Assembly: GCF_035594765.1 (NCBI RefSeq)
Contig: NW_026943819.1
Span: forward strand, 18,712,703-18,776,702
DNA: 64,000 nt
Direction of reading: 5' to 3'
Source of the DNA: Anolis carolinensis
Lineage: Eukaryota
Shown: positions 2,870-46,806 of the stretch, one piece after another
Layout of the letters: each line of letters begins with the position of its first letter
How positions within the stretch are numbered: position 1 is the stretch's first letter
Notes under the pieces: model-generated
What the model saw: only the letters and a program-made list of their open reading frames with translations
Told to the model about the DNA's origin: nothing
The model's database searches: none
Position numbers and translations under genes: made by a program

Positions 2870-3101
2870 TCGATCTGTGCATTAATGTTTTTACTGATTG
2901 TCATGTTTAAATTTATTGTTTTTTAATGTGAAATTTTATTATAATGTGTATGTTATTGTCATTTTATACTTTTGATATTAATGAAGAAATTGGGGCATTG
3001 AATGTTTGCCATTTATATGTATGTTAACCACCCTGAGTCCCTCTGAGGAGAGAGGGAAGTCTAGAAATAAAGTTTTTATTGTTGTTGTTGTTGTTGTTGT
3101 T
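2870..3101 (+). mobile_element. L2-like LINE 3' end with (TTA)/(GTT)n tail
   Basis: T-rich UTR, ccctgagtccctctgaggagagagggaag stem-loop, aataaagtttttatt(gtt)n. Confidence 0.7.
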
Positions 3102-3954
3102 GTATGACACAGCAAACAAGATAGATATGCTGGATTTCGTATCACAAAATCACAAGTCGAACACTTCCCAAGTGTCTAGGACTGTGTGATGTATTTTTGG
3201 ATGATGCGTGCAGATCCCAGTAGGGGTGGCCTTTTGCAGTTGGCAGATCATAATTTTGTCAATGTCTATTGTTTCCAAATGCCGGCTGAGATCTTTTGGC
3301 ACGGCATCCAATGTGCCGATCACCACCAGGACCACCTGCACTGGTTTCTGCCAGAGTCTTTGAAGTTCAATCTTGAGGTCCTGATAGCAGCTTAGTTTTT
3401 CCTGTTGTTTTTCGTCAATGCTACTGTCACCTGGGATGGCGACATCAATGATCCAAACCTTTTTCTTTTCCACAACTGTGATGTCTGGTGTGTTGTGTTC
3501 CAGAACCTTGTCAGTCTGGATTCGGAAGTCCCACAGTATCTTTGCGTGCTCGTTTTCCAATACTTTTGCAGGTTTGTGATCCCACCAGTTCTTTGCTGCT
3601 TGGAGGTGGTACTTGAGGCATATTTGGGCCACATAGTTGTGCCTCCGTTTGTAGTCTGTCTGTGCGATTTTCTTACAGCAGCTGAGGATATGATCAATGG
3701 GTCATCAGCTGATTTTTTGATCTTGGCCTTAATTGCATTTGTTCTGATGACTTGCTCCTGGGCTGCAAGGATCAGGCCTTCTGTCTCCTTCTTCAGGATC
3801 CCATTTGTGAGCCAGAGCCAGGTCTTCTCCTTATCAGCTTTTCCTTCAATTTTGTCAAGGAACTTTCCATGCAATGTTTTGTTGTGCCAGCTGTCAGCTC
3901 TAGTTTGTAGTGCAGTTTTCTTGTACTGTTTTTTTGTCTGCTGTGCTTTGAGGA

Positions 3955-3955
<1 letters not shown>
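3102..3955 (-). mobile_element. R4/Dong-clade non-LTR retrotransposon, 5'-truncated, frameshifted
   Basis: ORFs 3392-3874 and 3150-3632 encode HNTPDITVVE...DVAIP...EK (restriction-like endonuclease); flanked by (GTT)n and (TTA)n 3956-4004. Confidence 0.9.
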
Positions 3956-4005
<50 letters not shown>

Positions 4006-5605
4006 TCAAGAGAAGACAAACTGTGCTCTTTTAATTGTTGTTCTACTTGTCGTCAGCAGTACCCTCATGTGTTTTCCCCTTTGTAGGCAAATGTTTCACC
4101 ACTCTTCTAATAAAACAGAATACGGGAAATCTACATGTTCCTACCATCATCCCCGCTGTTTGCAATCTGTCAATGAAGTCATAGTCCACTGCTTTACAAA
4201 GTTCGGAAAAGACCCAATCTGATAAAATTCTGATGCAGCTGACTTATTCCTTATATCATCTGGAGTTTTGTGTGAATAAGGACCCAGTGGAATTGAGCAA
4301 GATTGATCTTATAAGGCTGCCTCTCTACTCTCTTTAACTTTTGTGACCCCAGGCACTGCACAGAGAGTTTGCTGAGCAAACAGGTATTCCAAGACTTTTC
4401 CTAGGTACAAATCAATTTTAATTACAACAAAGCCTTCCCACAATAGTGCTGCCAGCCAAATGGATCCCAAACTGTGTAGTATTTCCTTCCTTCATCCACT
4501 AACTATCTGAAATTAAATGGCGAGCTGTATTGCGGCAGGGCCATTGTCATGCAAACGAAGGAAAAACAACTTCCTTTCCAATTTTCTCATGCAAATAGAG
4601 ACTGCATTGTTGAGACAGAGAATGTGTTTTGCCATCTCAGTGGTTCTGCAAGAGAGATAAGAAGGATTGCACAAGTTTTGCAATTTCTAAACTGGCTGGT
4701 TGTTTACACACACCTCTCACAAAATGTTTAAACAAAATTAGTATCTAAAACAGCAAGGTCAGCAAACTGAAAATTTCATCAGCATTATTTTCTTTCTTTA
4801 TGCCATATATTCACATTTATTCTGTCCATCCTCTGGTTCAAAACACCAGGCTTAGCATTTTCAGAGTACTAAGAGCAAGAGTTCTCTCTGACTCTATTGG
4901 CTCAATCTAGGATTTGCAAACTAAGGATTATACTCCAGCAATATTCACCTAAGTGCCTTTAGAAATGCAGGCTTTTTGGAAGTGAAGTTTCAGTAAACAT
5001 GCATAACCTTGGGCTGTAATATTAAACTGAACATATTGCCATTTAAATTTTTGAGAACAGGTGTGTGTGTGTACCTGTGTGTGTATGTTCAGTTCTGTAC
5101 TAAGACTTCAAGGAAACAGGGTTTGAATCCATTGGGTGACTCTGGGCAAGTCACATGCTCTTAGCCTTACAGGGATACAATGGCAACCTTCGTCTGAACA
5201 AATCTTGGCAACAAAAGGCCTGACGGAGCCCCAATGGGGTTGCCATAAATCAGAAATAATTCTAAAGCACAGTACCATAATCTTTTATGATAGCCTGGTG
5301 TCTAAACACATGTTTTCAGTTATCTTTCTGACCATAATTCTAAAATTAGAATGAGTATTTAAACACTGTAACGCAATTTTTGCTGCAAGTGTTGTTTGTT
5401 GTTTCTGCCTTTAAGTCATTTTTAATTTAAGGTGGCTCTATGATAATCCTATCAATGTTTTCTGGGAGTGTGTGACTCTTCCGAGACCAACCAATGGGTT
5501 TCCATGATTGAGTAGGGAATCGTACCCTCATCACTGCTCATCATCATAGTCCAATGCTCAACTACACTCACTATCAAAACAACCATGCTGCCTGTTCTGC
5601 TATGC

Positions 5606-5740
5606 CAGTGGTTCTCAACCTATGGGTCCCCAGATGTTTTGGCTTTCAACTCCCAGAAATCCTAACAGCTGGTAAACTGATTGGGATTTCTGGAAGTTGT
5701 AGGCCAAAACACCTGGGGACCCACAGGTTGAGAACCACTG
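5606..5740. mobile_element. hAT-type MITE
   Basis: TIR CAGTGGTTCTCAACCT...AGGTTGAGAACCACTG; perfect 8-bp TSD TGCTATGC. Confidence 0.92.
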
Positions 5741-5921
5741 TGCTATGCAAAGGGGTGCATTTCTCATTATGTTTTGGCTTCTTCGTATCACAAGCATTTC
5801 TGAATATTATAAAAGACTCCTGCCTTCTATGGTTGGATCTACATCTATACTGCCCTATATCCCAGGATCAGATCCCAAATTATCTTCTTATTCCAGATTA
5901 TCTGGTAGTGTAGATTTATAT

Positions 5922-6238
5922 AAAGGTAAAGGTTTCCCCTGACATTAAGTCCTGTCATGTCTGACTCTGGGGGTTGGTGCTCATCTCCATTTCTAAGCCG
6001 AAGAGCCGGCGTTGTCCGTAGACACCTCCAAGGTCATGTGGCTGGCATGACTGCATGGAGCACAGTTACCTTCCCACCGGAGCGGTACCTATTGATCTAC
6101 TCACATTGGAATGTTTTCGAACTGCTAGGTTGGCAGAAGCTGGAGCTAACAGCAGGCGCTCACTCCGCTCCCGGGATTTGAACTTGGGACCTTTCGGTCT
6201 GCAACTTCAGCAGCTCAGTGCTTTAACACACTTCGCCA
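5922..6238 (-). mobile_element. Sauria SINE, near full length
   Basis: (ACCTTT)n tail, tRNA-like head with GTTCAAATCCC B box, conserved body. Confidence 0.9.
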
Positions 6239-7475
6239 GATCCTGGGATATAGGGCCTAATATGGGAGGAGAACAAGAGAAGATAAAACCAGAAAAGGGA
6301 AAAGACAGAGGATTAACTTGTCTCCTTGATGTGTAGCAAGTCCAGGGCAAGCGGAATCCATGCAACTTGGCCTTGTGATTTAATTGATCTTGGTAGAAAT
6401 GTTTTTAATTCTATCTCAAGAAAGTTTTCTGTCACAGAGTCCTCAAAGGAAAACCACCTTTGACTGCTCGCCCTCCCCAAAGCATCTTATTGTGAGAAAA
6501 ATTATAAGACACATTATTAGCAAGTTCTTTTCCATGACACAGTTGGGTCATAAAAATGCAGGCAATTCAAAGTATGGTTTGAATATCCAGGTACACAATA
6601 TAGGTTTCCAGGACAACATGCCAACAACATTCTTTTCCTAGTGAAAGAGGTTCACAGACCAATGCAAAGATGTTTCCACTTGACTACTGTACTTTTCACA
6701 TTTCTCTGACTATTTTTATACCATAGGAACTTAAATCACATCTTAGGTACCTCAAGACTGATACAAAATCTTAAGACACTCCTCCTATTCTTCTCAAAGG
6801 CTTTATCTTCACATCTTTAGTTTTCTACTTTCCCTTTTATTTTACTTCCAAGAAAGACTTACTCAGCCTTACTGCCATGATCATGTGGTCGAAGCCACAA
6901 AGCCACATACCACAAAGTAATAACTAACAGTGTTGGAGCTCCACTAATTACTCTACTCTTGGAGACCACCTTACTGAAGACAGGAGTCTCTCTTCAAACG
7001 CTTCACTTTTGTGATATACTAGGATATCATATCTTCTTAAACCTTACTTCTACAAGCTGTGGGGGCATAAAATAAGGACTTCAAAACAGAGAGTGGGCTA
7101 AGTTATTCCTCCACATTATCTGGGACAGAAATCCAGTATCCAGTATAATAGGACACACCAAGGGATGGATGTAGTCTTCAGTGCATTGCCAGCAACTTCT
7201 GAGTATGTTCAAAAAACAAGAGAGAAGTAAAGTGTGTCATTACTTGAGGATGGTCTTAGATCATGCTGGGTCTCACCTCACATTCTTAAGAGTTTTCTGC
7301 TGTTAATAAAATATTCACAAACCACTTCCTATACAGAAAAGCCAGCAGGACATACCAGTTTGAACCTCAACTATGACTTTGGAGACCAGTGTTTGATTCT
7401 TCTGCTTGGCCATGAAAACCCACTGACCTGTTGTAAGTCATACTCTCCCAGATTCAGAGAGAGAGTCACCATAAG

Positions 7476-7938
7476 TTTATTTACTTATTATTTATTTACA
7501 GTATTTATATTCCGCCCTTCTCACCCCGAAGGGGACTCAGGGCCGATCACATTATACACACATAGGGCAAACATTCAATGGCCATAAACACATCAAACAG
7601 AGACCGAGACAGACAGACGCAGAGGCAATTTAACCTTCTCCTGAGGGGATGTTCGATTCTGGCCACAGGGGGGAGCAGCTGCTTCATCATCCACTCTGAC
7701 GGCACAGGTCGTAAATTAGTTAAACTTGCCTCCCCACTTTTATAAGTGGTACCTTATTTCCTACTTGATAGATGCAACTATCTTTCGGGTTGCTAGGTCA
7801 GCAACGAGCAGGGGCTATTTTTTTATTTATTTTTAATTGATGGGTGCTCACCCTGCCACGGGCTGGCCTCGAACTCATGACCACATGGTCAGAGTGATTT
7901 ATGGCAGCTGCTCAACAGCCTGAGCCACAGCCCGGCCC
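7476..7938 (-). mobile_element. Anolis SINE2-like SINE inserted in an old CORE-type SINE
   Basis: Same body as the 1917 copy; AAGTT duplicated at both junctions. Confidence 0.88.
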
Positions 7939-9860
7939 AAGTTGAAAACAACTTGAAGGCTTACAAAAACTAAAAGCATGCTGGAGGTCTCTCTACAGAT
8001 GCTCAGATTTCAGATCTGTGGGGGGAATCACAGGTAGCATTACCTTGTTACACATGTGGCTCTTATGTCCTAAAAAAGCATATGGTTGGAACCAAATGGT
8101 AAATGTAATTACAAGGCAAAATATGAAACAATTAAGATTTGTTTCCCTTTTGTCAGTCCTCCAGCAGCAAAATCCAACAATCCTTTTTTAAGGAATTAAT
8201 TAGAATGCTTTTGGTTGCAGTCCAAATTGGAAAGGATGGGATGGTCTCAACTGGTAGAACAGGGTTTGGAGTCCTATGCTATCAGATAAATTAACTTGCA
8301 ACATCACAGTAATTAGAGAAACAGAAATGTGGACAAGTTGTTTCCATCTGCTGTGCTTTCATTTATTTCACTGACAAAGATGGCAAGGATTGCTTAGGAA
8401 ACTCAACAGAGGGGGTCTTTTAGTGAGTTGATGTGTGTACAGTCCATCCTTCATTGTTATGTTATGTATCTGAGAATATTTAACTAACTTTTAAAACAAA
8501 CAAACAATATTGCCAGCAGATGGGCAAGTAAAGAATATAGAAGCATCAAATGCAGTCACCCATCCAAAATGTGTACAGAGAAATGAAAGAAAGGAGACTC
8601 TTTAGATCACAATAAGAACTTATAAAGGGGAAGTGTTGAAGACAAGATTAAATATAGAAATCGTAACTGGGAAGAAATTTGACAAGTGAGTTGAACTTTT
8701 TTCCTGGGCTTGAATCATGGCATGGATCAGACGCACTCCGTAGGTGACTATGTGACACACTGCGAGAGACTGGCTGAGTAGTACAAACACTAAGATTTGG
8801 CCTCTGTCCACCTCAACATCGTTTTAAGTACTACTGAGTTGGACTCTTCCCTATGCTGTGTCCTGGCTCAGAGCCAGTTGTGCAGCATCCAAAAATAAAG
8901 TCACATGGCACCTTATTCTCATATCGTGAACACTTTCTAAATCAAGCTGTCAACCCCAAGAAAAACAACCATGCAACAGCACTCTACAGTCAAGCTTCAC
9001 ATTTCCAAATAATACCAAAGAATGAATTTCATCCAAGGGTCCCTTAAAAACTTCCTTTGGTCTTTAATGAAGCAATTCAAATTGCACGCTGCAAAACAAC
9101 TCTAAATAAGATGAAAGCCCACCTACATGGAGTTGTTAGCCAATATGACCTGAATCAAAGTTCCTTCTGAATGGGAATGCTAAAATAATTCACTGAGTTT
9201 GATTTTTTTTTCATTTTTCATCTTCTACTTAAACACTGGCTTTCTAATTATTCCTTAAGCAACATTACAAGCATGTATAAAAACGAAACTATTATTCTGG
9301 TGAAACAAGTATCCCAGAACCTGCTTCTGCCTGATTCCATCTAGTGATCTTTAAAATATCTACTAAATTGTTCTCCTTGAAACAGACTGGTGATTAATTG
9401 CCAACCTCTGTGCAAATTTCTCATCCCTCGTAATGAGGAATGCTTTGCTTTTCATCAAAGATTTAGCAATCTGTACCAAAAAAAACCCTCTCTATGAAAA
9501 AATTGCCTTTTCATTTTCTGAAGGAAATTACACATGTGCGCATACGGAGAGTGGGGATGGGGGGGGGCTGATGGATAAAAAAATCCAATACTTCTCATCT
9601 TTAAAAGCCTATACAGTAGGACAGCAAGCATCATAGCTCCGCTATACAATTTGAACAGTTTCTACACTTTACACAATTTGCATGAAAAATGTTCTCAGAA
9701 ATACAAAACCTGTCTGAATTGAGAGAACTATCCAGAAATACAATACCTCTCAGAATGGAGAGAACTATCTTGCAGGTAAGGCTGGGGAAAATAGTAGTTT
9801 TTCATTTTCATGTGAGAGAAGAAGACGTGTAAGGATTTCTTTACATTTCCAGGTCTATTC

Positions 9861-10355
9861 CTTTATTTATTTATTTATTTATTTACAGTATTTATATTCC
9901 GCCCTTCTCACCCTGAAGGGGACTCAGGATGGATCACATTATGTACATATAGGGCAAACATTCAATGCCCATAAACGCATCGAACCGAGACAGAGACAAC
10001 AGACAGACAGACAGACGCAGCGGCAATTTAACCTTCTCCTGAGGGGATGTTCGATTCTGGCCACAGGGGGGAGCAGCTGCTTCATCATCCACTCTGACTG
10101 CACTTCCTCACTTCCTCATTCCAACGCTGTAAATTAGTTAAACTTGCCTCCCCACTTTTATAAGTGGTACCTTATTTCCTACTTGATAGATGCAACTATC
10201 TTTCGGGTTGCTAGGTCAGCAACGAGCAGGGGCTATATTTTATTTTTAATTGACGGGTGCTCACCCCGCCACGGGCTGGCCTCGAACTCATGACCTCATG
10301 GTCAGAGTGATTTATTGCAGCAGCTGTTTACCAGCCTGCGCCACAGCCTGGCCCC
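9861..10355 (-). mobile_element. Anolis SINE2-like SINE
   Basis: Same body; (TAAA)n tail. Confidence 0.88.
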
Positions 10356-11663
10356 TTTAAAGCTGAGATGGTCAACTGCATGGGGAATGTGGCAATCTTT
10401 CTGCCTCAGACCTCGCTCCTCAAACACCTTCATTGCCCTCTGAAGACCTTATGGAATTGGAGACAGTAAGTGAATATGCATCTTTTCCTTCCACTAATTT
10501 GAGATATACCTCAAAAGAACATTTAAGGATCTCTTGTTCCTCTCCTGGAATATTTTCTCTGTAGGCCTTGTGGTATACAGGAGTCAGGGATGCCAGTGGG
10601 GATACGTTTTATGTGTTGGGGAAAGGATTCTACATGATTTTGCAAACATAGTCTGAAAATAATGATATTTCAAAAAAGAATTGACGGTTGAGAGACTTTG
10701 GGGGGCTCTGGGGACTGGCGGGGGCTTCAGAGGCACAAGTGGGACTGCATCACGTCTGAAGGCTGTACTTTGCTAACCCATTTTAAGGTCTATTGTGAAA
10801 TGTGGATCACAGAAACCTCAGAGACTGACTATTGAACTCAAAAGTATTCATGAAACAATCTGATGCTTTCAAACAAAATGTCATTTTGACACTAAAATGA
10901 ATTTACTCCCTTAATTTCCCTCAACAGTTTTGAAACTGAATATCTACAGATATTCCTTGAATGCTCAATGATTTCCTGAATATTTATTATGTATTTGCAT
11001 TAATTGCAACTGGCATGCAAGAACACCTTTTTTTGATTACACATTACACCTGACAGGATACCATATTTAATATATGACATAATCTGATGAATATGCAGTG
11101 GCATTTCATATATGTTAAGTGGAAAAGCTCATAAGATTTCACATGACTCAGGGCAATATAGAGAGAACACCAGGTCCAAATATTACATTTTGAATCCAAG
11201 AATCGCACAGAAGAAGTGTGGATATTGTATTGAATATTTGCAATTCAAAAATTGTGTACCATATTTGATATTTAGAAAATACATATTAAAATTAAATTCA
11301 TCTGTAATCAGATTGAAGGTTCTTTCATGGAATGTATTATTTCATTTAGTTTGAAATCACGCTTATATCTTCGTTGCTACATGCCTTGAGATCTTGAAGA
11401 GTTTAATAACTTGTTGTTGTGAACCTTTAAGCCATTTTCAGTCTATGGCAACGGTAAGACAAATGTATCAAAGGGGATTTTTTGGCAAGATTTATCCAGA
11501 AATGTTTTGCCTTTGCCTTCCTTTGAGGCCAAGACTTGCCCAAGGTCACCCAGTAGGTTTCCTTGGTTGAGCAGGGATTCAAACCCTGATCTCCAAAGAT
11601 ATAGTCCAACACTCAAACCACTACACCACTTTCCCTTAAATGGCTTGTCTCTAGTCTTTAATA

Positions 11664-12484
11664 CAGTGGTTCTCAACCGTGACCCAACAATGGGTTTCAA
11701 GAACGAAATCTGGTCCACAAACCTCCTTCCTCTTTAATTCTTTATTTTCTTTTCCTTCTGCAAAGCTGACCATTGCATTGGATAGACCATTAAATACTAG
11801 CTGTGCCCGGCCACATGTTGCTGTGGCAAAGTGGTGGTGGTATTGGTGAAAAATTGTTGTGTAAATTTTATTTGACGTTATTTGTATTTTTTAATTAATT
11901 TTATTGTAAGTTATCTTTTTATTTATTATATTTTATTATTTTCTTATATTATTTTTAGTTATTTTCTGTTATTATACTATTTTATTGTATTAATTTTTTT
12001 AGTGTTTTTAATTATTTTTTAGTGTTTTTTATTATTTTTTATTGGGTTGCTAGGAGACCAAGTTGGAGGAGCTTAGCCTTCTAACTGGCAACAATTAGAT
12101 AAAAGCAATTATTCCTCTCCCTCTAATTAGGACTTTATTTTTCTTTTCTTTTTGTTGTATCAACCTAGAGCCGTGGATGATGGGTTATGTTGTCAAATTT
12201 CGAGGTTGGGGGGCCTGTAGTTTTGTTGTTTTGTCTGGTGCCGTGATTCCATCACTCTTTTATATATATAGATAGTTTTCTGTGGGTGAGCGGATGGCGA
12301 CTACTGGATGGCATATGTTCTGTATCAGAAACTAGAGCTGATGTGGTCCAACCAATGCAATTTTCTGAATCAGCACCCCAAATAATTAAACCAAATTTAT
12401 GGTTGACCAAAAACTGATTCATAACCCTTTTGGTACTCAAAAGTTGGAAAGTGGGCCCTGGTCAAAAAAGGTTGGGAACCACTA
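11664..12484. mobile_element. Non-autonomous hAT element hosting a Helitron
   Basis: CAGTGGTTCTCAACC...GGTTGGGAACCACTA termini; 8-bp TSD CTTTAATA at 11656-11663 and 12810-12817. Confidence 0.8.
11797..12272 (-). mobile_element. Non-autonomous Helitron (A-rich subfamily)
   Basis: Minus strand A|TC...GCCAC-N8-GTGGC hairpin...CTAG|T; no TSD. Confidence 0.85.
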
Positions 12485-12807: not shown

Positions 12808-14350
12808 TACTTTAATACAATCATTATTACAACTATGGTTCTGTAGCCTTGAGTTTATAATCTCTCTTCTAACACATCTTCATACTTGTCCCGATTTGGC
12901 CAGGACAGTCCCAATTAATCCTGTCATCTCGCTTTCCAGTTGTTTTTAAAGCATCCCAGTTTCTCTCTCCTCCTTTTATTTCCCACTTTACATCAGCTGC
13001 TACAATCTAAGCTCAATGTGCAAAAGGAGTCTGCATTCAACTCAACAAGGTTTCCTTTAAATTGAGGCAAGACATAAATGTTGCAGTCTTTCCCTCCCTA
13101 GTTTGTCTGTCCTTCCTCCTTAATATCTTATGCCAACTTGTCTGTACTCAGATGCTGCTTGGCAACACATGTCCCGGTTTTCATCTGTGAAATGTTGGCG
13201 GATAGGCATCTGGCTGTGTATTGGAGAGAGTGCATTTCCTACATATTCTTTACCTCTATTTCCTATCCACACTACCTGTAGTTTCCTGACATTCTAAATA
13301 ACAGTTTGAGGCAGGATCTGGGTATGATGCTGAGGCACTAGCCATACTGGACTAGCAGGGGGGCAGGCGAGGAAAGAGAAGATTTGTGTGCTGAGCAGCT
13401 GTCAGCTCTGCTTGCTGGCATCTAAAAGCATGTAATTCACAACTTCTGTAAGCCGGAGAAGTTATCATTTGGAAGTTGTTGCTGTGCAGTGGCTTGACAG
13501 TCTAACAATGCAATATAAATCTTCTATTCATGCCACTCTGGCAAGACTGAATCCCAGAAATAGGCAGCAAACAGCCAAGGTGGTGATAACTTCTTGTTAC
13601 AGCAACATTCACTTCCAGCAGTCAGGCCTGTCCTCATTACCATATATTATCTTGTTGCATATGCTGAAAGTCATGCCAGTGGACTTCATTGTTGCTGGGC
13701 CTTGCTTTACTCATCCCCAGTGTTAATGGCAGAAAATACTTCCATTTTCTCTTCGCTCTTTCTAAGTCCAAAGCCCAAGCAGCCTTCTCAGATAACTCAG
13801 GTTTTGACGTGTCTACCGCTTGTGGTGTTTTTTTGCCATTCCTTTGGCTGGTGGATTGAAGTTAAGCAGCCATCAAAGCCTTGTAAAATGGGATTCGGGG
13901 TTGTGAAAGAACAGCACTTTCCCTGCCTCAATGTACTTTGGGTCTTAGCATGGGATTTCAGGCAGAACATTAAAGCATTCCAGCCACCTAAAGGGATATT
14001 ATGTTCATCTCAAGAAATGGCTGTTAAGGAAAAATAAAGTTCAAGATACAGACAGAGAGAGAGAGATGGAGAAAACTAGCGAAGGTAAGATGACAAACTT
14101 TTGCAGCTGAATTTGAGAGAACAAACTCAGGGTAAATAAAAGCCTTCCCATGTATGATAAAGGCTCTGGCTATACTGTTTTGTTACAATTATCAAAGAGG
14201 GAGAGAGAAATCAGACATTTCTTTCTCTCATATAGACATAAAGATCAAATTTAATGCTTGCAACAGAAAGAAGCAGAGAGACTGAACTGGTCATGATGCT
14301 CCATATTAACGCCGGCACCAGAGAATGTATTCCACTAGCTCATTCTAATA

Positions 14351-14632
14351 TTAATTTATTTATTTACAACATTTATACCCCACCCTTCTCACCCGAGGGG
14401 ACTCAGGGCGGCTTACAAAAATTGGCAAAATTTAATGCCCAAATTGCAATAATAAAAACAAAACAATATAAACAGATCTGTTAATAACATTGTTAAAACA
14501 CATTATAAAAACCTTAAAAACATATATATATATATATATAATTAATTCCATTCATCCGAGATCCTCATGCTTCATCCTTAAATCAGGCCATGTCAACTTT
14601 GTCATTTACTCATCAAAAGCTTGGGCACATAA
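14351..14632 (-). mobile_element. L2 LINE 3' fragment
   Basis: Minus strand encodes LCAQAFDE* (L2 ORF2 C-terminus-like), then UTR, gtaagccgccctgagtcc stem-loop and (TAAA)n. Confidence 0.7.
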
Positions 14633-24191: not shown

Positions 24192-25259
24192 TAATTATAT
24201 AACTGAAGGAGATTGTCCAACAGTCTGCCTTTAAATTTGTGACACACAATCATATTCTTGATAAACATAATCTTGTCTGTGTGTGTGTGTATATATGTGT
24301 GGGGTCATATTTGGTGATAACTGCAAGGGGAATTTTTATTTCTTACCATCCATGATGTTAAAGAAGGTGGGCACTTCGGTTTTGTAATGCTAAAGAAGTG
24401 TCTTCCATGTTCTGGGATACCATCCAAGAATTCATGTGTGCTCATAATCAACATTGGCAGGAGGTCTCATGATATTTACTCACATAATACAAACATCTTC
24501 TTAGATAGCTTTTGAAATAAGTAGGAAACATTGCTAGAAAACTAGAGATTGATTTACCACTGCTATGAGAAATCAGTTCCCATTCTGTAAGAAGAATGGT
24601 ATTCCCCTCTGATAGAAAGTCCATATATACACATATGGTGATGAAAAGAAAGAAAAGAAAAAAGCAGGGAGTTCTCCTACCATTCCCTCGAAGGATATGA
24701 AACAAATCATTTTCAACCTTTGCTGTTGGCTGCAGAGCTTATTAAAATATATGTGTCCAGTACTAATGGGAAACAAATTGAGGTTTGAAGAGATGGGAAT
24801 GAACTAGCCAATATTTAAATGGAGATATGAATTGCTTGGCACTCTGAAGTGTAGTATGTTCTTTAGCAAGTGATGATTTTTTTTGTGCTGACATTCATTA
24901 GGAATAGTGCATTACAGGGAATCCATACAGATCCAAAAGAGGAACCAATCCAAAAACATAGCACAAAACTTTTAGTATGGCCATTGAGCATTTAATCATG
25001 GAAGTCTTTATTCTTTTCACCCATTAGGAAAGGCTGCAGAGGGGGGGAAAAGAGCTGTTGGAGAATAATAAAGGAATCCAGGTGATGTGAAATAGAACAT
25101 TGTCATGTGTTTTCATGTATTCCTGGAACTACCTGCATAAGTTGTGGATAGATATCAATGGAACTAAACTAAAAACTAAAACTTTATTTATAAAGGCTCT
25201 TCCCATGACCTTGTAACACCTTAACTTCCTTCTTGTTTACAAGTTCCACTCAGTGCACT

Positions 25260-25442
25260 TTGCCCAGCTCATTTTATGTTTTTATTGCTGTGTTTTTCAT
25301 GTGTTTTATAATGATTGTGATTTTTTAATGCCTTTTAAATTTATTTGTGTGTTTTTGTATTTGATATTACTGTATGCTGGTTTTATATCTGTAAGCCACC
25401 CCGAGTCCCTCTGGGGAGATGGTGGCAGGGTACAAAAATAAA

Positions 25443-25496
<54 letters not shown>

Positions 25497-25533
25497 CCCC
25501 ACCACCATCTCCCCGCAGGGACTCGGGGCGGCT
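25260..25533. mobile_element. Two L2-like 3' ends tail-to-tail sharing a (TTA)n
   Basis: gtaagccaccccgagtccc...ggggagatggtgg (+) and an inverted copy at 25496-25533. Confidence 0.75.
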
Positions 25534-26921: not shown

Positions 26922-26959
<38 letters not shown>

Positions 26960-26960
<1 letters not shown>

Positions 26961-27360
26961 TCTGGAACACAACACACCAGACATCACAGTTGTGGAAAAG
27001 AAAAAGGTTTGGATCATTGATGTTGCCATCCCAGGTGACAGTCGCATTGACGAAAAACAACAGGAAAAACTCAGCCGCTATCAGGACCTCAAGATTGAAC
27101 TTCAAAGACTCTGGCAGAAACCAGTACAGGTGGTCCCAGTGGTGACTGGCACATTGGGTGCCGTGCCAAAAGATCTCAGCCGGCATTTGGAAACAATAGA
27201 CATTGACAAAATCACAATCTGCCAACTGCAAAAGGCCACCCTACTGGGATCTGCACACATAATCCGAAAATACATCACACAGTCCTAGACACTTGGGAAG
27301 TGTTCAACTTGTGATTTTGTGATTCCAAATCCAGCATATCTATTTTGTTTGCTGTGTCAT
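26960..27360 (+). mobile_element. R4/Dong-clade retrotransposon, 5'-truncated
   Basis: ORF 26992-27288 gives the endonuclease C-terminus; (TAA)n on both sides. Confidence 0.92.
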
Positions 27361-27361
27361 A

Positions 27362-27412
<51 letters not shown>

Positions 27413-27849
27413 ATTTTATATCCCGCCACCTTACAAAGGCACTCCAGGGTACAGCATATAAAACAGTACATAAGTATAAAACAATAACACATAAAATTAT
27501 AACAACGATCACTATCAAGACATAAAACATAAAATAAAATAGCTCAATTTTAGAAATGCAGAACACTTGTAGATAAAAACTATCTGCCCCCAACTCTTAA
27601 ACTAAAGTCCCAGAGGGTCAACCTCATATTTCATCTTTCTCTGCCTTTTGATCAACCCTTAAAAGTATTACTAAACAGATGGATTGACAGAATAATTTTT
27701 TTGTAATAGTTCCCTTTCCATATTTCAACCTTCTTGCCAGATCTCCAAATGACCTCATTGTCTTCCATAAGTGTCCAGGAGTCTTAGCCTAGTCCTTCAT
27801 CACTATGGCTACTATTGGCAAGCCCTTTTTCAAGTTTCCTCCTCTCTTC

Positions 27850-28056: not shown

Positions 28057-28058
28057 GA

Positions 28059-28120: not shown

Positions 28121-28122
<2 letters not shown>

Positions 28123-35200: not shown

Positions 35201-35280
35201 GGCTGTTGTTGGACTGTAACTCTTTGAATAAGAGGAATTTAATGCTGCACTGCAGCCACTCTAGCTTAATGCCCTTAAGG

Positions 35281-37329: not shown

Positions 37330-39165
37330 GAAAGAAGTATTCAAGGATTGCAAATCAAGACTGATAGGGAGTTAGGCTTCACCTAGCTAACTTAAACACA
37401 TTCAAATCTGCAGGGCCAGATGAAGTGCATTCCAAAGTATGGAAGGAACCTGCTTGATGTACTCTCTGAACCATTTGCCATCATTTTTGAGAAGTCATTG
37501 AGAATAGCTGGAAAAGGGCAAACATTGTTCATCTTTTCAAAAAATGGCAAAAAATGCCCAGGAAATGACAGACTAGTCAACTTGACCTCAACAGCAGGAA
37601 ACAAAAATATTAAAATTGATTATATGTCTATCTTCAAGTATCATGATGACAATCCAGTGATCAATAGAAGCCAGCATGGGTTTATCAAGAACCAATCCTA
37701 CCAAACTAATATTATATCTTTTTTTCGCATCACAAGTTTAGTAAATGGCAAGAAAGCTGTGGATGTCATTGATCTGGACTTCAACAAACCCTTTGATCAA
37801 GTCCCCCATAATATTTTGATCAACAAACTGATTAAATGTGAAATAGATGAGAACACAATTAGATTGACCATGGTTTTACAATGAATTATGGATCCAAGAG
37901 TCATCATGAATGACTGTGCTTCAAACTGGGAGGCGGTTGTACCCTGTTTCCCTGAAAATAAGACATCCCCGAAAAATAAGACCTAGTAGAAGTTTTGCTG
38001 AATTGCTAAATATAAGGCCTCCCCCGAAAGTAAGACCTAGCAAAGTTTTTGTTTGGAAGCATGCCCAGCACCTGCCAAACACAGTTTGTCTGGTTATGCT
38101 GGTTTGTGATGACAACTACTGTACAGTATATAATAAATGTTCATGTTTTAGTTCAACAATAAATGTGAATTCTTCTTCATGGAAAAACAAGACATCCCCT
38201 GAAAATAAGACCTAGCACATCTTTGGGAGCAAAAATTAATATAAGACACTGTCTTATTTTCGGGGAAACACGGTAAGTAAAATGCCTCAGGGTTTTGTCC
38301 CATGGCAATTACTCTTTAATATTTTTATCATTGTCTTAGGCAATGGGGCAAAGGAATTTTTTTTATCAAGTTAGCACATGATATTAAACTTGGAGGGCTG
38401 GCTAACACATTAGAGGATAGGGACAGTATTCCAAATAGCATAGATAAATTAGAAAGTTGGACAGAAATCAATAACATGAAATTTATTGGACACAAATGCA
38501 AAATTCTACATTTAGGCCACAAAAACCAAATGGATGGAGGATACATGGCTCAGCAATACTAAATGTGAAAAGGACTTTGGGATTATCATAAACTAAAAAG
38601 TGTGATTCTGCAGCAAAAGTGAATGCTATTTTACCCTGTGTTAATAGAAGCATACTTTCCAAGCTGATGGAAATAATAGTCTATATTATATTCTGGTCAG
38701 GCCTCATCTGGAGTACTGTGTTCAATTCTTTTAAGAAGGATACAGGCAATTTGGAGCAGATTCAGAGAAAGTCAATAAGGATGATGAAAGGTATGGAGAA
38801 TAAAAGATATCCAAAAAGGTTGAAGGAGCTGGGCATGTTCAGCTTGGTGAAGACAAGACTGATGTGACTGCACTCTTTAAATACCACAAGGACTATCATA
38901 GAGAGGAGGGAGCAGGCCTGTTGCCTCAGAGGGTAGAACCAGGTCTAATGGTTTGAAGTTGCAGGAGAATCAATTTCAACTGAACATTAGAAGGATCTAA
39001 TGTAGGGTGGTTAGGCAATGGAACCAGTTGTTTAGAGAGGGGGTGAGGTATCCTTCTCTGGATTTCTGCAAAAAGAGACTGGGGATATTGTAGCTGGAGA
39101 TTCTGCACTGAGCAAGGGGCAGGACCTGGTGGCTCTTGAGGCTCCTCCAACACTATGATTCTATA
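37330..39165 (+). mobile_element. Old degenerate CR1 LINE (RT region to 3' end), split by a MITE
   Basis: SQHGF...VDVIDLDFNKPFDQVPH, PQG and ADD-like remnants; ends ccaacactatgattctat. Confidence 0.88.
37942..38273. mobile_element. Tc1/mariner-type MITE, third family
   Basis: TIR CC(G/C)TGTTTCCC(C/T)GAAAATAAGACA; TA TSD. Confidence 0.88.
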
Positions 39166-39357
39166 AATGTGCTGTAAAGATGAGCACTGGGTATAAATCA
39201 ACTATCAGTTGGTTCGTTTCCTGGAAGTTGCAGGGAAACGTATTTGTGTCCATCACTCTGGCCATTTCTCTATTTTAGAAATCAGTCAAGGCTTCAGCAG
39301 GATCACTACCAATGTAACAGGAAACCCAAAGAGGCATCAGGAATCCTTCTGGATGCA

Positions 39358-40276
39358 TGCACTACAAACTAGAGCTGACAGCTGGCACAACAAAACATTG
39401 CATGGAAAGTTCCTTGACAAAATTGAAGGAAAAGCTGATAAGGAGAAGACCTGGCTCTGGCTAACAAATGGGACCCTGAAGAAGGAGACAGAAGGCCTGA
39501 TCCTTGCAGTCCCTTCGGGGAGATGGGGCGGGGTATAAAAATAAAGTTATTATTATTATTATCATAGCCCAGGAGCAAGCCATCAGAACAAAGGCAATTA
39601 AGGCCAAGATCGAAAAATCAGCTGATGACCTAAAATGCAGACTGTGCAAGGAAACCGACGAAACCATTGATCATATTCTCAGCTGCTGTAAGAAAATCGC
39701 ACAGACAGACTACAAACAGAGGCACAACTCCATGGCCCAAATGATCCATTGGAACTTATGCCTCAAGGACCACCTCCCAGCAGCAAAGAACTGGTGGGAT
39801 CACAAACCTGCAAAAGTATTGGAAAATGATCACGCAAAGATACTGTGGGACTTCCGAATCCAGACTGACAAGGTTCTGGAACACAACACACCAGACATCA
39901 CAGTTGTGGAAAAGAAAAAGGTTTGGATCATTGATGTTGCCATCCCAGGTGACAGTCGCATTGACGAAAAACAACAGGAAAAACTCAGCTGCTATCAGGA
40001 CCTCAAGATTGAACTTCAAAGACTCTGGCAGAAACCAGTACAGGTGGTCCCGGTGGTGATGGGCACATTGGGTGCCGTGCCAAAAGATCTCAGCTGGCAT
40101 TTGGAAACAATAGACATTGACAAAATTACGATCTGCCAACTGCAAAAGGCCACCCTACTGGGATCTGCATGCATCATCCGAAAATACATCACACAGTCCT
40201 AAACGCTTGGGAAGTGTTCGACTTGTGATTTTGTGATATGAAATCCAGCATGTCTATCTTTTTTGCTGTGTCATAC
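39358..40276 (+). mobile_element. R4/Dong-clade retrotransposon, 5'-truncated, with 58-bp insertion
   Basis: CRLCKETDETIDHILSCC zinc knuckle, RHN, PDI..D..EK endonuclease in ORF 39504-40202. Confidence 0.93.
39510..39567 (+). mobile_element. Minimal L2-like 3' tail inserted into R4
   Basis: tcccttcggggagatggggcggggtataaaaataaag(tta)n interrupts cttgcag|cccaggagc, which is contiguous in other copies. Confidence 0.85.
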
Positions 40277-40293
40277 AATAAAATAATAATAAA

Positions 40294-40294
<1 letters not shown>

Positions 40295-40344
<50 letters not shown>

Positions 40345-40712
40345 TTATTTTTATACCCCACCTCCATCTCCCCAGGCGGACTCGGGGCGGCTTACAAATA
40401 CAAAATGAACATACAATAATATCAATACTAAGAAACACGCAAATGAAAATTAAAAGGCATAAAATAAATTACAATCGTTTCTCAAACACAAGTTAAAACG
40501 CAACGATAAAAACATAAAATGAACTCGGCAAAAGTGCACTGAGTGAGACTTGTAAACATGAAGGAAGTTAAAGTGCTCTAAAATCATGGGGAGAACCTTA
40601 AAATGGGGTGAACCCTGAGGTAACCATGCAGGTGCAACCAATCAGAGGTAACTGCTAGTATGAAAATTTAATGTACAATGGGCGGTAGTTATTTAAAAGC
40701 CTGGGCGAAGAG
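40295..40712 (-). mobile_element. L2 LINE 3' fragment with (TAA)n tail
   Basis: Minus strand LFAQAFK* at 40712-40689, UTR, gtaagccgccccgagtcc stem-loop. Confidence 0.78.
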
Positions 40713-41380
40713 CATAACCCTCCTGGGGTGAACCCCTGCGTTCTAGCATGTCTAAAAACCCCGGGTTTATGTTTCAGGTGTTTAATATATATTTAAAGCA
40801 CACACATTTTCCGTCAGGCACTTCTCAAATATTTTTATTCCCTCCCACCCCCCACCCTATAAATATTTGAGGAAGTGTATGCTGAGATGACTCAATTGAC
40901 TCCTGATGGAAAATTGATTCCTCACACATTTGTTAACTCCAGTATGAGGTTAACATGTCTCATCAGGTCCAGATCTCTATTATGCAGTTACCTGTTTCAT
41001 GAACACTTGTTTGCAGAGCAGTTAATACCAAAACTGCTACATCAAGACTCCTAAGATTTAATTGCATGCGTTCGTGAAGCACTTTGGCCTTTTAAAATAA
41101 AAAGGTGCTAGAGAAGGGCAAAGTGTCATTACCAGCTGCAGATAAACCCTTAATAATCTTCTCTTGGCACGGACTGGGTGTCTTTTAATACCATCTCTGT
41201 ATAGCAATAGTTCCTGATTATGGCACATCTGGGAGTCGGGTAATATAGCACATTCCTAGGAAAAGGAAGGGCGAGAAGGATCAACTCTGATATAATTATT
41301 TATATTCCCATGTTCATCCCTTTCTAGGAATATTGGCTTCCTGGTGTCAAAATACAGTTTATAAAGGCTAAGGATAAATA

Positions 41381-41703
41381 CAGTAGAGTCTTGCTTATCC
41401 AACGTAAACAGGCCGGCACAACGTTGGATAAGTGAATATGTTGGATAATTAGGAGAGATTAAGGAAAAGCCTATTAAACATCAAATTAGGTTATGATTTT
41501 ACAAATTAAGCACCAAAACATCAGGTTATACAACACATTTGACAAAAAAAGTAGTTCAATACACAGTAATGCTATGTAGTAATTACTGTATTTACGAATT
41601 TAGCACCAAAATATCATGATGTATTGAAAACATTGACTACAAAAATGTGTTGGATAATCCAGAACGTTGGATAAGCGAGTGTTGGATAAGTGAGACTCTA
41701 CTG
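41381..41703 (+). mobile_element. Tc1/mariner MITE (CAGTAGAG family)
   Basis: TIRs and TA TSD. Confidence 0.92.
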
Positions 41704-41777
41704 TACCACCCAACAATTGGATTTCCTGGAAAGCTACTCCCTAGCAGGTTTAGCATAGTGGCAATGAGTCTGAACTA

Positions 41778-42110
41778 CAGTAGAGTCTCACTTATCCAAC
41801 ATTCACTTATCCAACATTCTGGATTATCCAACGCAGGCTGCCTTTTAGTAGTCAATGTTTTTGTAGTAAATGTTGCAATGTTTTGGTGCTAAATTCGTAA
41901 ATACGGTAATTAGTACATAACATTCCTGTGTATTGAACTGCTTTTTCTGTCATATTTGTTGTAGAACATGATGTTTTGGTGCTTAATTTGTAAAATCATA
42001 ATGTAATTTGATGTTTAATAGGATTTCCTTAATCTCTCCTTATTATCCAACATATTTGCTTATCCAACGTTCAGCCAGCCAGTTTATGTTGGATAAGTGA
42101 GACTCTACTG
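41778..42110 (-). mobile_element. Tc1/mariner MITE (CAGTAGAG family, variant)
   Basis: TIRs and TA TSD; inverted relative to 41381. Confidence 0.9.
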
Positions 42111-42591
42111 TACAACTAAGGAGTAAAAATCAACAGGCAATGAGTATCAGATTTGTAGAATAGTTTCAGTACTTGTATGTTTAGAAGATGTATATTTATG
42201 ATGGTGCCAGTTTTGTGTGTGTGTTTCAGATTTGGTTGTGTCAGATGTAGTAGTTTTAGTGTTATATATCACAATTTTTTTCTTTGTATTGTTTTTTCTT
42301 CACTTCATAATAAAAAAAAGTATTAACAAAGTATCCACCACAAATTTACCTCTCAGCTTCAGTTTTCCCAACTGTAGTAACAAAGATAATGGAACTGATT
42401 ACAGAGTAGTTGTCAGAAGTCCAACCACACAAGGCTCATGAAGACTTGGCAGATTTGGAAGCACCATGATAAATACTTTTCAGTTCCATAGGGCTTTCAT
42501 GTATATCTAGTTACAAGCATTTCCTGTACTTTATCAATGGAATCCGCAATGCAATGTACTACAGAGTTTATTCAAAATTAATATCTAGAGG

Positions 42592-42728
42592 GTTTTTTTC
42601 GTGTCAGGAGCAACTTGAGTCACTTCTGGAGTGAGAGAATTGGCCGTCTGCAAGGACGTTGCCCAGGGGACGCCCAGATGTTTTGATGTTTTTACCATCC
42701 TTGTGGGAAGCTTCTCTCATGTCCCTGC
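42592..42728 (-). mobile_element. 5'-truncated A-tailed SINE (family of 55781)
   Basis: gttgctcctgacacgaaaaaaa on minus strand; TSD ATCTAGAGG. Confidence 0.85.
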
Positions 42729-43959
42729 ATCTAGAGGTTAGGAAGGCTATTATACACCTCCTAGTATCTATGATGGCTGGGAGCTTCTGAGAGATATAAT
42801 CCAAATAAACAACTTCTCCATGATTCTATAACCCATACAACAGCCCTGTGAAGACAGATTCTCTTGGCATCTGTATAGACTTCCCTCTTCCTCTAATGAA
42901 GGAAGGAGTTGTTCAAAGTGTACGTCAGTTTCTTTTCCAGCTTTCCTGTGTTTGCAGGACTTTATAAACATACTCCAAACATAATCCCAAAGAAATGAAG
43001 GCTAATGATAAAGATGCCAACACAATGGGACCAAGCAAATATTATTCTTAGATGTCAACTGGGCCTCTTGAGAAAGATATTTTGATCCCTTGTTGTCATC
43101 TATTTTTGTCCCCTTGTGACATCTAATCAATCAAGGTATGTTTCTTGGAGAGCCTGAAGAAAACTCTTTGGGATACAGTTCATTTACCTTCCCTGCCATG
43201 ACCAACCGCAAGACATTTTGAGATTGGAGAGATGCCAGAGGTGGGGGCAACAGATGACAAATGAAGTCATCTGAGGAAGGGAAATGGGACCACCCCCAAC
43301 CTCATGCCCTATCTCCTTTATATTTTAAAAAACATATAGTTTTGATGGCTAATCACAGAGTGCTGAGCCGTGAGGTCTATCCATTATCAAAAGGCTGCTT
43401 AACACAGAAACTGGGAGGCAGACTAGGAGCCTGACTTCATAAATCAAAGCTTGACAAGCACTCCCAAACTGATATAAAATAGTCCTTCTAACGTCTGTGG
43501 CCTGCATACACTCTATTCATTTTACTTTCTAAAATAATAGATGAATAGCAATCAAAAACAATCTATTCCCCTCTGGCAGGAGTCTCATGTCTTCATTTTT
43601 CAAATGGGCAATGATGTTGACTGAACAATGGTGAGTAAGTGAGGCAGGGCATGAGCAAGGAGCATCTACGTGAGGGACAACTGGCGATTAAGATGACACC
43701 AGGTCGTCTTGTGTCTCATGCACTCTTAAACACTAAAAACACATCTCCCTGTGCAAATATGTTCAGCTTAATTAAATACTTTGGGACAAGGAGCTCCACA
43801 GATAAATTGATGCTCTCCAGCTTTTGAATGCATCACACACTGATAGAGTCAGGGTCCTGAGCTGCATTTAGGAGATACAGAATTAATCTCTAGGGTTTTC
43901 AGGGTTTAAACTCAAGAACAGGAAAAATATACATATTCTTATTTGTATATTAGATACTG

Positions 43960-44161
43960 GTTGTTGAGGTTGGTCTGATGCACTTTTATAAATTTTTTTT
44001 ATAAAATGCTGTATTTCAATGTTTTAATTAGACTGTTATATGTTATGTTTTTAATTATGTTTTAGCTGGTAAATTTTGTTGTATGTTCTGAGCTTGGTCC
44101 CGCACGTAAGCCGCCCCGAGTCCCTTTGGGGAGATGGTGCTGGGGTATAAAAATTAAGTTG

Positions 44162-44219
<58 letters not shown>

Positions 44220-44232
44220 TACTACTACTACT
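43960..44232 (+). mobile_element. L2-like 3' end with (TTA)n tail
   Basis: gtaagccgccccgagtccctttggggagatgg...(tta)n. Confidence 0.75.
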
Positions 44233-44344
44233 TGCACAGAACAACAGCAGTGATGCTGGTGCAATCTGCCCATAATTACTAGTTATGCATCAAATCACTT
44301 TGCAGCAAAAATCCTCAACCATCACATGCAGTATCAATATGTAT

Positions 44345-44478
44345 CACACATGGGCAAACTTGGGCCCTCCAGATGTTTTGGACTTCAACTCCCAGAAATC
44401 CCAGTCAGTTTACCAGCTGTTAGGAATGTAGGAGTTGAAGTCCAGAACACCTGGAGGGCTGAAGTTTGCCCGTGCCTG
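44345..44478. mobile_element. hAT-type MITE
   Basis: CA..CATGGGCAAACTT TIRs; TSD ATAT(G/A)TAT. Confidence 0.85.
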
Positions 44479-44508
44479 ATATATATGCTTTCTTGAGGAC
44501 CTCAGAGT

Positions 44509-44552
<44 letters not shown>

Positions 44553-44604
44553 TTAATTACTTATTAATCGCCCTCCATCCACGATGCTCTAGGCGATTTA
44601 CAAG
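44509..44604 (-). repeat. (ATC)n microsatellite with L2-like tail
   Basis: Minus strand tgtaaatcgcctagagc...gggcg followed by (GAT)n. Confidence 0.6.
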
Positions 44605-46335
44605 ATAAAATTATCTTCCTGCATTTCAGATTTTGTGCAAACAAAGGATTCTAGAATCCTTCCAGATATATTGTCAAGTTGTACTTTTGTCTTATTTATC
44701 AACAAGGTTCAGTTTTGAAAAGAGAGACACTTATACATAATAGGTTTCAAGTGGAAAACCCAAGCAGGAGACTCTAGTTTCTTGGCTAGAGTACTGAGGG
44801 TATTCACAACATAAGGTTGTTATACTTTGGCTTCCCCAAAGAGTCTCTACAAATGAAAATGCCTTCTTTTCCTGGGGATAGAGAATTAAGTTAGCACTCT
44901 CAAGCTAGCTTTTTTAAAAAAATAATTTCGCACAGCTCACAGATTTAACATATTCACAGAGCAATGTTGTTTCTTTCCTTATAAAAGAGAGTTTTGCCTG
45001 CTATCAATTTCAATCAAATTATATGCAATACAGGACTGCAAAAAAGAAGGCTTAAATTGCTTTGTCTGTTTCTTCCCACACTCCACCTTCAGCTTTCAGA
45101 AGGAATAAGGCTTGATCTTTTCAAATGTAAATCAAGCAATTTGCAAAAAATATGTATTTTGGCATTTATGCAATGCAGCTTTCAAAACAAACCTGGGATT
45201 TTATTGATTTTGTGAACTGTCATCTAAATGAGTTATCTATGGCTGGTAATTTGCAGCATTAATGAGAAAGGAATCTTTTCATTTATAATGACTAGTTTGA
45301 AAAAAAATCCCCCCCACACACATATTAAAAAACCCACCCAAACTCCTGAGCTTGCATGATTTTGTTGTTTGGAACCTCCCACCTTCCTGTTTTTTAACAA
45401 ATAGAAAAAAGCAATTGAACATAACTATTGTGGAAGATATGAAGTTGTAATTTTCAAACTTTGCCTTGACTATCAGCCTACACATAATAGCATGTGCTGC
45501 ACTTTCACAAAGAAAACTCCACATACTTAAAGTCAGCCTCTCCATCACATTCTCACCGATGGATTATGAACTAGAGGGTAATATCCAATTATTAGGGATG
45601 TGTGATCCATAAAAAAGTTCAAAAGTCATTAAAACTTGGGGACACTGGCATTTCATTTCTAAAGTGTTTCTAAAATATAGTTAGTGAAAAATTTGTTACT
45701 ATAATGAGAGTAACGAAATTTCATTACTATTTCGTTATAACAATTGCACGTAATTACTATTATCAGGGAAAATTCAGGGGCTCCTTCTTCCTTCATTTCT
45801 ATAGCTATTGGGGTGAAACATGCTACAATGGTAAACCACATTTATAAACAACATTTTTAATAATAAAGAAAATATGTTCCTAATTTGACAGTATCATGTC
45901 CAGTTTAATTGTATAGTCTTTACTTTGAAAGTAGTGGTTCTACACCAGGAACTTTGTTTTTGCTCCAAAAGCTTTGTTAAATAGGTGGATGACGATGTTA
46001 AGTTAGTAGACTGGAAACAACAGCAAAATGTGCTATAACACATTGTCCCTCGTGCAAAGACAAAGTTTTTGCAGTTTAATAAACTTTCAGCATGTTTTTG
46101 TGATAGAACCAATTAGGAAATGACATTTATAATCCAGGAACAAAAAAATAATAATTTATTGGAACTCTGGCTCACTACAGAGGGTCAAATCTCTCTGATG
46201 GTGAGCAGTGCACTACATTCTGAGAAATGTAGTTTAGGGCAGGGCATAGGACTCCTTCCTTCCAAACTACATTTCCCAGGGTTCTGTGCTGTTCACGTAA
46301 AACACTTAACATCATCACCCACCCATTTAACAAAC

Positions 46336-46497
46336 TTTTATTATAATGTTTATGTTATTGTCATTTTATACTCTTGATATTAATGAAGAAATTGGGGCAT
46401 TGAATGTTTGCCATTTATATGTATCTTAACCGCCCTGAGTCCCTCTGAGGAGAGAGGGAAGTCTAGAAATAAAGTTTTTATTATTATTATTATTATT

Positions 46498-46530
<33 letters not shown>
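46336..46530 (+). mobile_element. L2-like 3' end, near-identical to 2934-3101
   Basis: Direct sequence match. Confidence 0.85.
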
Positions 46531-46532
<2 letters not shown>

Positions 46533-46751
46533 ATGACACAGCAAACAAGATAGATATGCTGGATTTCATATCACAAAATCACAAGTCGAACACTTCCCAA
46601 GTGTCTAGGACTGTGTGATGTATTTTCGGATGATGCGTGCAGATCCCAGTAGGGTGGCCTTTTGCAGTTGGCAGATCATAATTTTGTCAATGTCCATTGT
46701 TTCCAAATGCCGGCTGAGATCTTTTGGCACGGCACCCAGTGTGCCCATCAC

Positions 46752-46753
<2 letters not shown>
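46531..46753 (-). mobile_element. R4/Dong-clade retrotransposon 3' end
   Basis: GTLGAVPKDLSRHL...RKYITQS*; (TTA)n 46754-46806. Confidence 0.9.

Positions 46754-46806
<53 letters not shown>

Follow-up and report, generated by a model that had tools for sequence, protein, structure and literature searches.

Can one retrotransposon family furnish the landing sites of another? The question is raised by a 64-kb stretch of the Anolis carolinensis genome (the window; all window counts below refer to this single stretch), in which five copies of one R4/Dong-type retrotransposon, here A to E, lie among 3' ends resembling those of L2 long interspersed nuclear elements (LINEs). Self-comparison of the window and alignment showed that every copy is 5'-truncated and that the copies share pairwise identities of 93.6-97.3% (Table 1). 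We consider it likely that L2-like (TTA)n tails are the main local supply of targets, and that the R4/Dong-type element inserts there as its clade uses TAA repeats. The relation between R4 and L2 is likely one-way and opportunistic, and the observation is a new instance of known behavior, following from microsatellite seeding together with the targeting of Dong.

The first line of evidence is the arrangement of the junctions. A (TAA)12-18 array, read on the R4 strand, adjoins the 5' truncation point in four of the five copies, and arrays in that position cannot be R4's own 3' tail. At A, an L2-like end is followed by (TTG)8, R4 and (TTA)16, and at D the same end is followed by (TTA)7(TTG)11, R4 and (ATT)18. 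Copy B lies between (AAT)13 and a (TAA)n run that leads to a weak L2-like end. Copy C has no 5' array; beyond its 3' end stand about four AAT units, a long array with TTA on the R4 strand, reversed in polarity relative to those at A, B and D, and a strong L2-like end. Copy E is preceded by (TAA)12 and followed by (ATG)6, and the profile search described below found no L2-like end near it. A preliminary description of this DNA had four of the five copies abutting an L2-like stem-loop through a TAA/TTA run. The abutment is significant at A, C and D but weak at B, and A and D share their flank; the connecting run holds a (TTA)7 part at D, but at A it is (TTG)8, and the long array at C has reversed polarity. 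The same description saw the array continue past the R4 5' end in three copies, which is the case at A, B and D and also at E, the copy with no L2-like end. There are thus at most four independent sites, three of them with an L2-like end, of which one flank is weak and one has the wrong polarity.

To recognize L2-like ends, a stem-loop profile was built from seven 3' ends that touch no R4 copy. Its search of the window returned 17 rows, 14 of them significant, seven of these being the training ends. The flanks of A, C and D matched significantly, and the flank of B gave a partial match of 9.1 bits (E 0.086) in the expected place and on the expected strand, a score exceeded in one of 20 shuffled windows. 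In L2-like ends, a conserved 3' stem-loop precedes a tail of (TTA)n, (TAA)n or (TAAA)n, a feature not exclusive to L2, and their hairpins have predicted energies of -13 to -26 kcal/mol, values that carry no shuffle control. Four copies resembling short interspersed nuclear elements (SINEs) share their last 50-70 bp with the L2-like ends; these are presumably Anolis SINE 2, although the name was matched to no reference. The pair of Anolis SINE 2 and Anolis LINE 2 is listed in the accessible part of PMC3747384. The SINE-like copies (1917-2384, 7476-7938, 9856-10354 and 61622-62094) and a further end at 14349-14418 carry the same stem-loop with (TAAA)n tails and have no R4 neighbor.

These ends account for the supply of arrays in the window. 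All 12 TAA/TTA runs of at least four units are L2-like tails or touch R4, and all four long R4-free arrays are L2-like tails (4/4, lower 95% bound 0.40). The preliminary description had listed four unoccupied L2 tails, and four do exist, with arrays at 25443, 44165, 47241 and 51572, but the first of them is faced by a second L2-like end. There, at 25388-25533, two L2-like ends oppose each other across one (TTA)17, the second having no TTA tail of its own and joining at the AT-rich end. R4 stands at L2-like ends in four of five cases (or three of four), against four of four R4-free arrays, which gives a Fisher p of 1 with a tiny n. Because every free array is L2-borne, 4/5 is what TAA targeting alone predicts. 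This supports L2-like tails as the local supplier of arrays, with no preference of R4 among them seen.

All four flanked copies (A, B, C and D) face their L2-like end tail to tail, as had been described. The earlier use of this layout as evidence must nevertheless be given up. R4 carries TAA on its own strand and the L2-like tail carries TTA on its own, so the tail-to-tail layout is forced by repeat polarity. It is symmetric in order of arrival and says nothing on the order of insertion; orientation was accordingly rejected as a test, and caution is needed wherever it is read as informative here.

Evidence that an L2-like insertion can create an array comes from related genomes. Contigs from 4 of 24 listed sequencing runs were aligned to 38900-47600, and only the best-supported rows are considered; X9 bears the organism label (A) of the best-matching runs, X10 is from a close relative (organism B) sharing 0.43 of words, and X12 and X14 are more distant. 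In X10 record 4, the blocks matching 46816-46992 and 47301-47600 are separated by 11 letters, known by their number, against 308 in the window. Eleven letters is the length of the unique stretch 47290-47300, and at most three repeat units could fit. At this one locus, in one contig, the L2-like copy 46993-47240 and its (TTA)16 are both absent from the close relative, which implies that the L2-like insertion brought its array: no array stood at the pre-insertion site of 46993-47290. The insertion is also younger than the split from that relative. A second joint dates the L2-like family against R4. Contigs of all four runs have joints that skip 39507-39566, and the 58-bp L2-like end inside copy C is therefore a later insertion; L2-like activity outlasted that R4 copy. 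Elsewhere in the alignment, X10 record 1 skips 41379-42110 and 42583-42728, repeats absent in the close relative and hence recent insertions. Among the joints listed, no contig bridges the C or D site, which is evidence in neither direction; X9 record 20 was considered as a bridge at copy C and rejected, as it reaches only 29 letters in, below the 31-letter rule.

LINEs with a restriction-like endonuclease (RLE) integrate by nicking and target-primed reverse transcription. At an L2-like tail, the restriction-like endonuclease of R4 would nick the TTA strand, and the freed 3' end would prime reverse transcription on the AAU-rich end of the RNA. The new R4 copy would split the array and leave repeats on both sides, and, with TTA on the L2-like tail's own strand, both 3' ends would have to face each other. 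The insertion of Alu and L1 into older Alu A-tails is a parallel. On the 5' side of their L2-like flanks, A, B and D show no array remnant, from which we infer that the tails at B and at the source of A and D already existed when R4 inserted. The claim that L2 makes the target sites of R4 can thus be kept in part: one seeded (TTA)16 and the four L2-like free arrays speak for it, but at the R4-occupied tails the order of insertion is inferred.

Several points weigh against this account. Seeding is seen in a single contig of a single run, for one 64-kb window, and among the best-supported rows there is no empty site for an R4-occupied tail. Copy C has an array of opposite polarity, lacks one at its 5' end and contains an inserted L2-like end; the L2-like flank of B is weak; and A and D are joined to their flank through (CAA)n beside R4. 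If R4 transcripts read through into the flank, the 5' array of D would not be the remainder of an L2 tail. The L2 label itself is putative: it draws on the hairpin, the repeat tail and the 3' end shared with SINEs, and is without protein support, as the L2-like ends of the window all lack an adjoining open reading frame (ORF). Members of the L2 clade are marked by an ORF2 with APE endonuclease and reverse transcriptase.

The preliminary description had warned that two of the four cases may not be independent, and this warning was well founded. The flanks 2931-3078 (A) and 46333-46477 (D) agree at 96.6% over 145 bp, with five differences, and the R4 parts of A and D differ at six positions in 220 bp, the lowest of the 10 pairs (the others differ at 9-18). 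The two copies also have a common (CAA)n junction and a common altered stem-loop. Copies A and D probably derive from one junction, and counting them as two events was rejected on the grounds of shared flank and junction. For these two copies only, we lean towards an R4-L2 junction copied as a unit, through 3' transduction, in which an R4 transcript runs on into an antisense L2 end, or through a local duplication or conversion. At 46333, where the shared flank ends, there is an A-rich stretch that on the R4 strand resembles R4's own 3' end. At flank position 46373, X9 has 52 contigs and X10 has 59, and X12 and X14 have none; the flank is therefore multi-copy and young, either an L2 subfamily or an extension carried by R4. 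Summed contig depth is not read as copy number here. Against copying as a unit, a single R4 variant is exclusive to A and D, a CpG-type change which could arise twice, and a multi-copy flank fits an ordinary young L2 subfamily struck twice as well.

For some sites the order may have been reversed, with R4 arriving first, in or with a TAA run, and the L2-like element then primed there. Over the window as a whole we hold this only as a tentative alternative. The same tail-to-tail layout would result, L2-like ends are also opposed at 25443-25533, and the 46993 insertion shows that L2-like copies arrived after the split from the close relative. Most of its weight falls on C, which may have formed in reverse order, given the L2-like end inserted within this copy, the absence of a 5' array and the long array of opposite polarity; at C the reverse order is as likely as R4 arriving second. 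On the other side, none of A, B, C and D has array remnants past the 5' end of its L2-like neighbor, and the flank of B is more decayed than the R4 copy adjoining it. The L2-like insertions at 46993 and 39508 used array-free sites, and the L2-like family therefore does not need TAA targets.

A stronger relation, in which L2-seeded arrays limit R4 targets so that R4 number tracks L2 activity, or in which R4 prefers L2-borne arrays, is improbable on present evidence. The L2-like origin of all four long free arrays and the single demonstrated case of seeding speak for it, and R4 and L2 are both polymorphic and recently active in A. carolinensis, with 1,729 and 11,210 polymorphic insertions, respectively (PMC5389967 Table 1, accessible part). 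However, R4 occupancy shows no excess over availability, four long arrays stand R4-free within 64 kb, and the array used by copy E has no L2-like end. Since TAA runs remain at one or both flanks of an R4 insertion, the element likely renews its own targets, and TAA targeting is found across its clade. We are similarly doubtful of a scheme in which TTA-tailed L2 makes most long anole TAA arrays and sets the R4 load, while an R4 master reads through and spreads a unit of R4 and antisense L2, seen as A and D. Chance adjacency of two abundant repeat families is very hard to credit even in a repeat-rich window with 14 significant stem-loop ends in 64 kb, as random placement gives p ~5e-6 for three of four sites and ~7e-4 for a strict two of four, and polarity is fixed at A, B and D.

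That L2-like tails should be used as they become available is consistent with the behavior of the wider R4 clade. We collected 92 related loci, eukaryote-type elements in contigs of metagenomes and metagenome-assembled genomes (MAGs), and kept the 77 in which the match reaches the ORF end (15 dropped); those kept have 34-58% identity. Downstream of the ORF in these 77, the first array is AAT at 39 loci and ATT at 2; a further 9 have some other motif, and 27 have no array. Upstream, the 64 loci with at least 30 bp have AAT as the last array in 19 cases and ATT in 0; in 5 the motif is a different one, and 40 lack an array. An association with TAA of fixed polarity is apparently clade-wide and broader than anole L2 tails, since the AAT polarity is fixed in distant relatives as well. 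The earlier assertion that Dong-type R4 elements target TAA repeats is upheld, both by the 5' (TAA)12-18 arrays of four of the five window copies and by the excess of AAT over ATT in the relatives. Downstream of 18 related loci no second LINE end was recognised, a weak negative as the loci were inspected by eye and without a repeat library. The 3' end of R4 had no exact match in metagenome contigs; an Rfam scan of the window gave no match, and a scan of seven related loci gave only two low-score, chance-like matches. By eye, tRNA-like promoter boxes follow the 5' (AAT)n in the closest metagenome relatives (L001:24-90, L002:10-80 and L003 after 3541), although these boxes had no match in Rfam. 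Two relatives end in telomere-type (CTAACC)n or (TTATT)n (L034 after 3463, L044 after 4711), possibly shifted targets. Seven R4-like loci (L085-L091) lie on contigs of one bacterial MAG and are most likely eukaryotic DNA in the assembly.

Both components of this account have precedents. The accessible parts of PMC3812793, PMC7998251 and PMC3774820 describe insertion of Dong in TAA repeats; Dong of Bombyx mori, DongAg, DongBg and Darwinula Dong1/2 share with the window element a single-ORF reverse transcriptase (RT) with a C-terminal zinc knuckle and restriction-like endonuclease, and insertion into (TAA)n with TAA on the element's strand. The difference is that in the window it is the 3' end of another LINE that adjoins most occupied arrays, while the origin of the arrays is undiscussed in those parts. 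In squamates, the tails of CR1-L3 and Rex LINEs seed AATAG microsatellites (PMC6050309, accessible part). The likeness is that a LINE 3' tail makes new microsatellite loci; here, by contrast, an L2-like element carries the repeat, a TTA motif, and a second element uses the new arrays as targets. Known targets of non-long-terminal-repeat retrotransposons include transposons and microsatellites (PMC4640811, in part), and Waldo, Mino, Kibi, Koshi and Togen likewise use repeated sequence as a safe landing site (PMC3812793, PMC4640811, as accessible). In our case the dependence is indirect, the target being a simple-repeat tail rather than a sequence specific to one family. Following Novick et al. 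2009, Table 1 of PMC5389967 assigns two R4 families, 3.8 kb long, and 17 L2 families to A. carolinensis. The accessible portion of that paper makes no mention of microsatellites or of an R4-L2 relation, and those of PMC3248570 and PMC13295347 make none of Dong. No report relating R4/Dong to L2 tails was found in the searchable literature, though subscription papers and Repbase entries may describe tails or targets.

The window copies retain only the C-terminal part of the protein, and the protein of copy C is 91-95% identical to A. carolinensis proteins in a protein search. The longest such relative, P0002 (1137 aa, 95% to copy C), has RVT_1 at 475-730 and zf-RVT, below the cut-off, at 904-970. 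Residues of endonuclease and knuckle type are kept across 19 relatives (C950, C953, H962, C967, P1035, D1036, D1049 and K1065), and the closest solved structures to P0002 are R2 proteins (E 5e-31). P0002 thus has the domain order of the R4 clade, in which one ORF encodes RT and then a zinc knuckle and a restriction-like endonuclease. Further marks of the clade are a 5' HDV-like ribozyme and an N-terminal Myb-like domain; all five window copies are truncated at the 5' end. The species matches that of the described anole R4 clade, and 1137 aa fits a 3.8-kb element (PMC5389967, accessible part). By its domains and TAA target, the window element is classed as an RLE-type LINE behaving like Dong.

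The closest proteins outside anoles come from the scorpions Centruroides sculpturatus (five gene models, on contigs of 0.27-1.4 Mb) and C. vittatus. Amino acid identity to Anolis P0002 is 83-86% for Centruroides, 77% for Phrynocephalus and 66-67% for Hemicordylus. Quick trees, which hold relatives and gene models only and no named R4, Dong or Rex6 reference, joined the iguanian lizards Anolis and Phrynocephalus and the scorpions at 100% support in the Shimodaira-Hasegawa-like approximate likelihood ratio test (SH-aLRT). A tree grouping all six squamate rows was rejected by the approximately unbiased (AU) test (p-AU 4e-11), this group having been named after the first tree was known. The presence of the element in two scorpion species argues against contamination. 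These protein comparisons suggest a candidate horizontal transfer of the R4/Dong-type element between lizards and scorpions, for which there is no report in the searchable literature.

Two side observations concern other repeats and tails in the window. In places the main tail is preceded, or its place is taken, by short runs of an element's last three bases, namely (GTT)n, (CAA)n or (ATG)n; the pattern looks like stuttering of reverse transcription as it began. An RT fragment (RVT_1, E 4e-6) lies at 37396-38862, and a related stretch at 58052-58626 ends in (ATTCTATG)n. Both are probably CR1-type. The coordinates of the features are collected in Table 1.

Table 1. R4/Dong-type copies, their junction arrays and L2-like 3' ends in the window
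Feature	Position	Strand	Remarks
R4/Dong-type copy A	3104-3955	-	5'-truncated; internal deletions of 34 and 15 bp
R4/Dong-type copy B	26961-27359	+	5'-truncated
R4/Dong-type copy C	39358-40284	+	5'-truncated; zinc knuckle and endonuclease part; no 5' array
R4/Dong-type copy D	46533-46752	-	last 220 bp only
R4/Dong-type copy E	59594-60372	+	followed by (ATG)6; no L2-like end
L2-like 3' end facing copy A	2931-3078	+	profile E 1.5e-6
(TTG)8 junction run at A	3079-3103	+	(CAA)n on R4 strand
(TTA)16 array, 5' end of copy A	3956-4005	+	
(AAT)13 array, 5' end of copy B	26922-26960	+	
(TAA)n array, 3' end of copy B	27359-27411	+	
Degenerate L2-like 3' end facing copy B	27412-27443	-	weak; partial match
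58-bp L2-like 3' end with (TTA)5 inside copy C	39508-39566	+	alignment gap; site without any array
(ATT)n array between copy C and L2-like neighbor	40294-40354	+	opposite polarity
L2-like 3' part facing copy C	40343-40599	-	profile E 1.3e-14; 81.8% over 258 columns to 25193 copy
L2-like 3' end facing copy D	46333-46477	+	profile E 1.3e-6
(TTA)7(TTG)11 junction run at D	46478-46532	+	
(ATT)18 array, 5' end of copy D	46753-46806	+	
(TAA)12 array, 5' end of copy E	59558-59593	+	no L2-like end nearby
L2-like 3' part, (TTA)17 tail, R4-free	25193-25495	+	array from 25443
Another short L2-like 3' end, opposed tail to tail to the 25443 array	25496-25533	-	profile E 6.2e-13
L2-like 3' end, (TTA)18(TAC)5 tail, R4-free	44079-44232	+	profile and repeat scan
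L2-like insertion, (TTA)16 tail, R4-free	46993-47290	+	element part 46993-47240
Short L2-like 3' end, (GTT)7(TTA)18 tail, R4-free	51500-51627	+	profile
Last-three-base repeats	44156-44164, 51553-51573, 3079-3103, 46499-46532, 60377-60394		
Window segment with scorpion relatives	39567-40199		P0005, P0006, P0106-P0108, P0167

If confirmed on DNA, the scorpion relatives would add to the R4 clade a case of horizontal transfer between lizards and arachnids. For the anole genome, should the pattern hold genome-wide, the L2-like tails and the R4/Dong-type element would form a clean vertebrate case of one retrotransposon supplying another's landing sites through microsatellite seeding.

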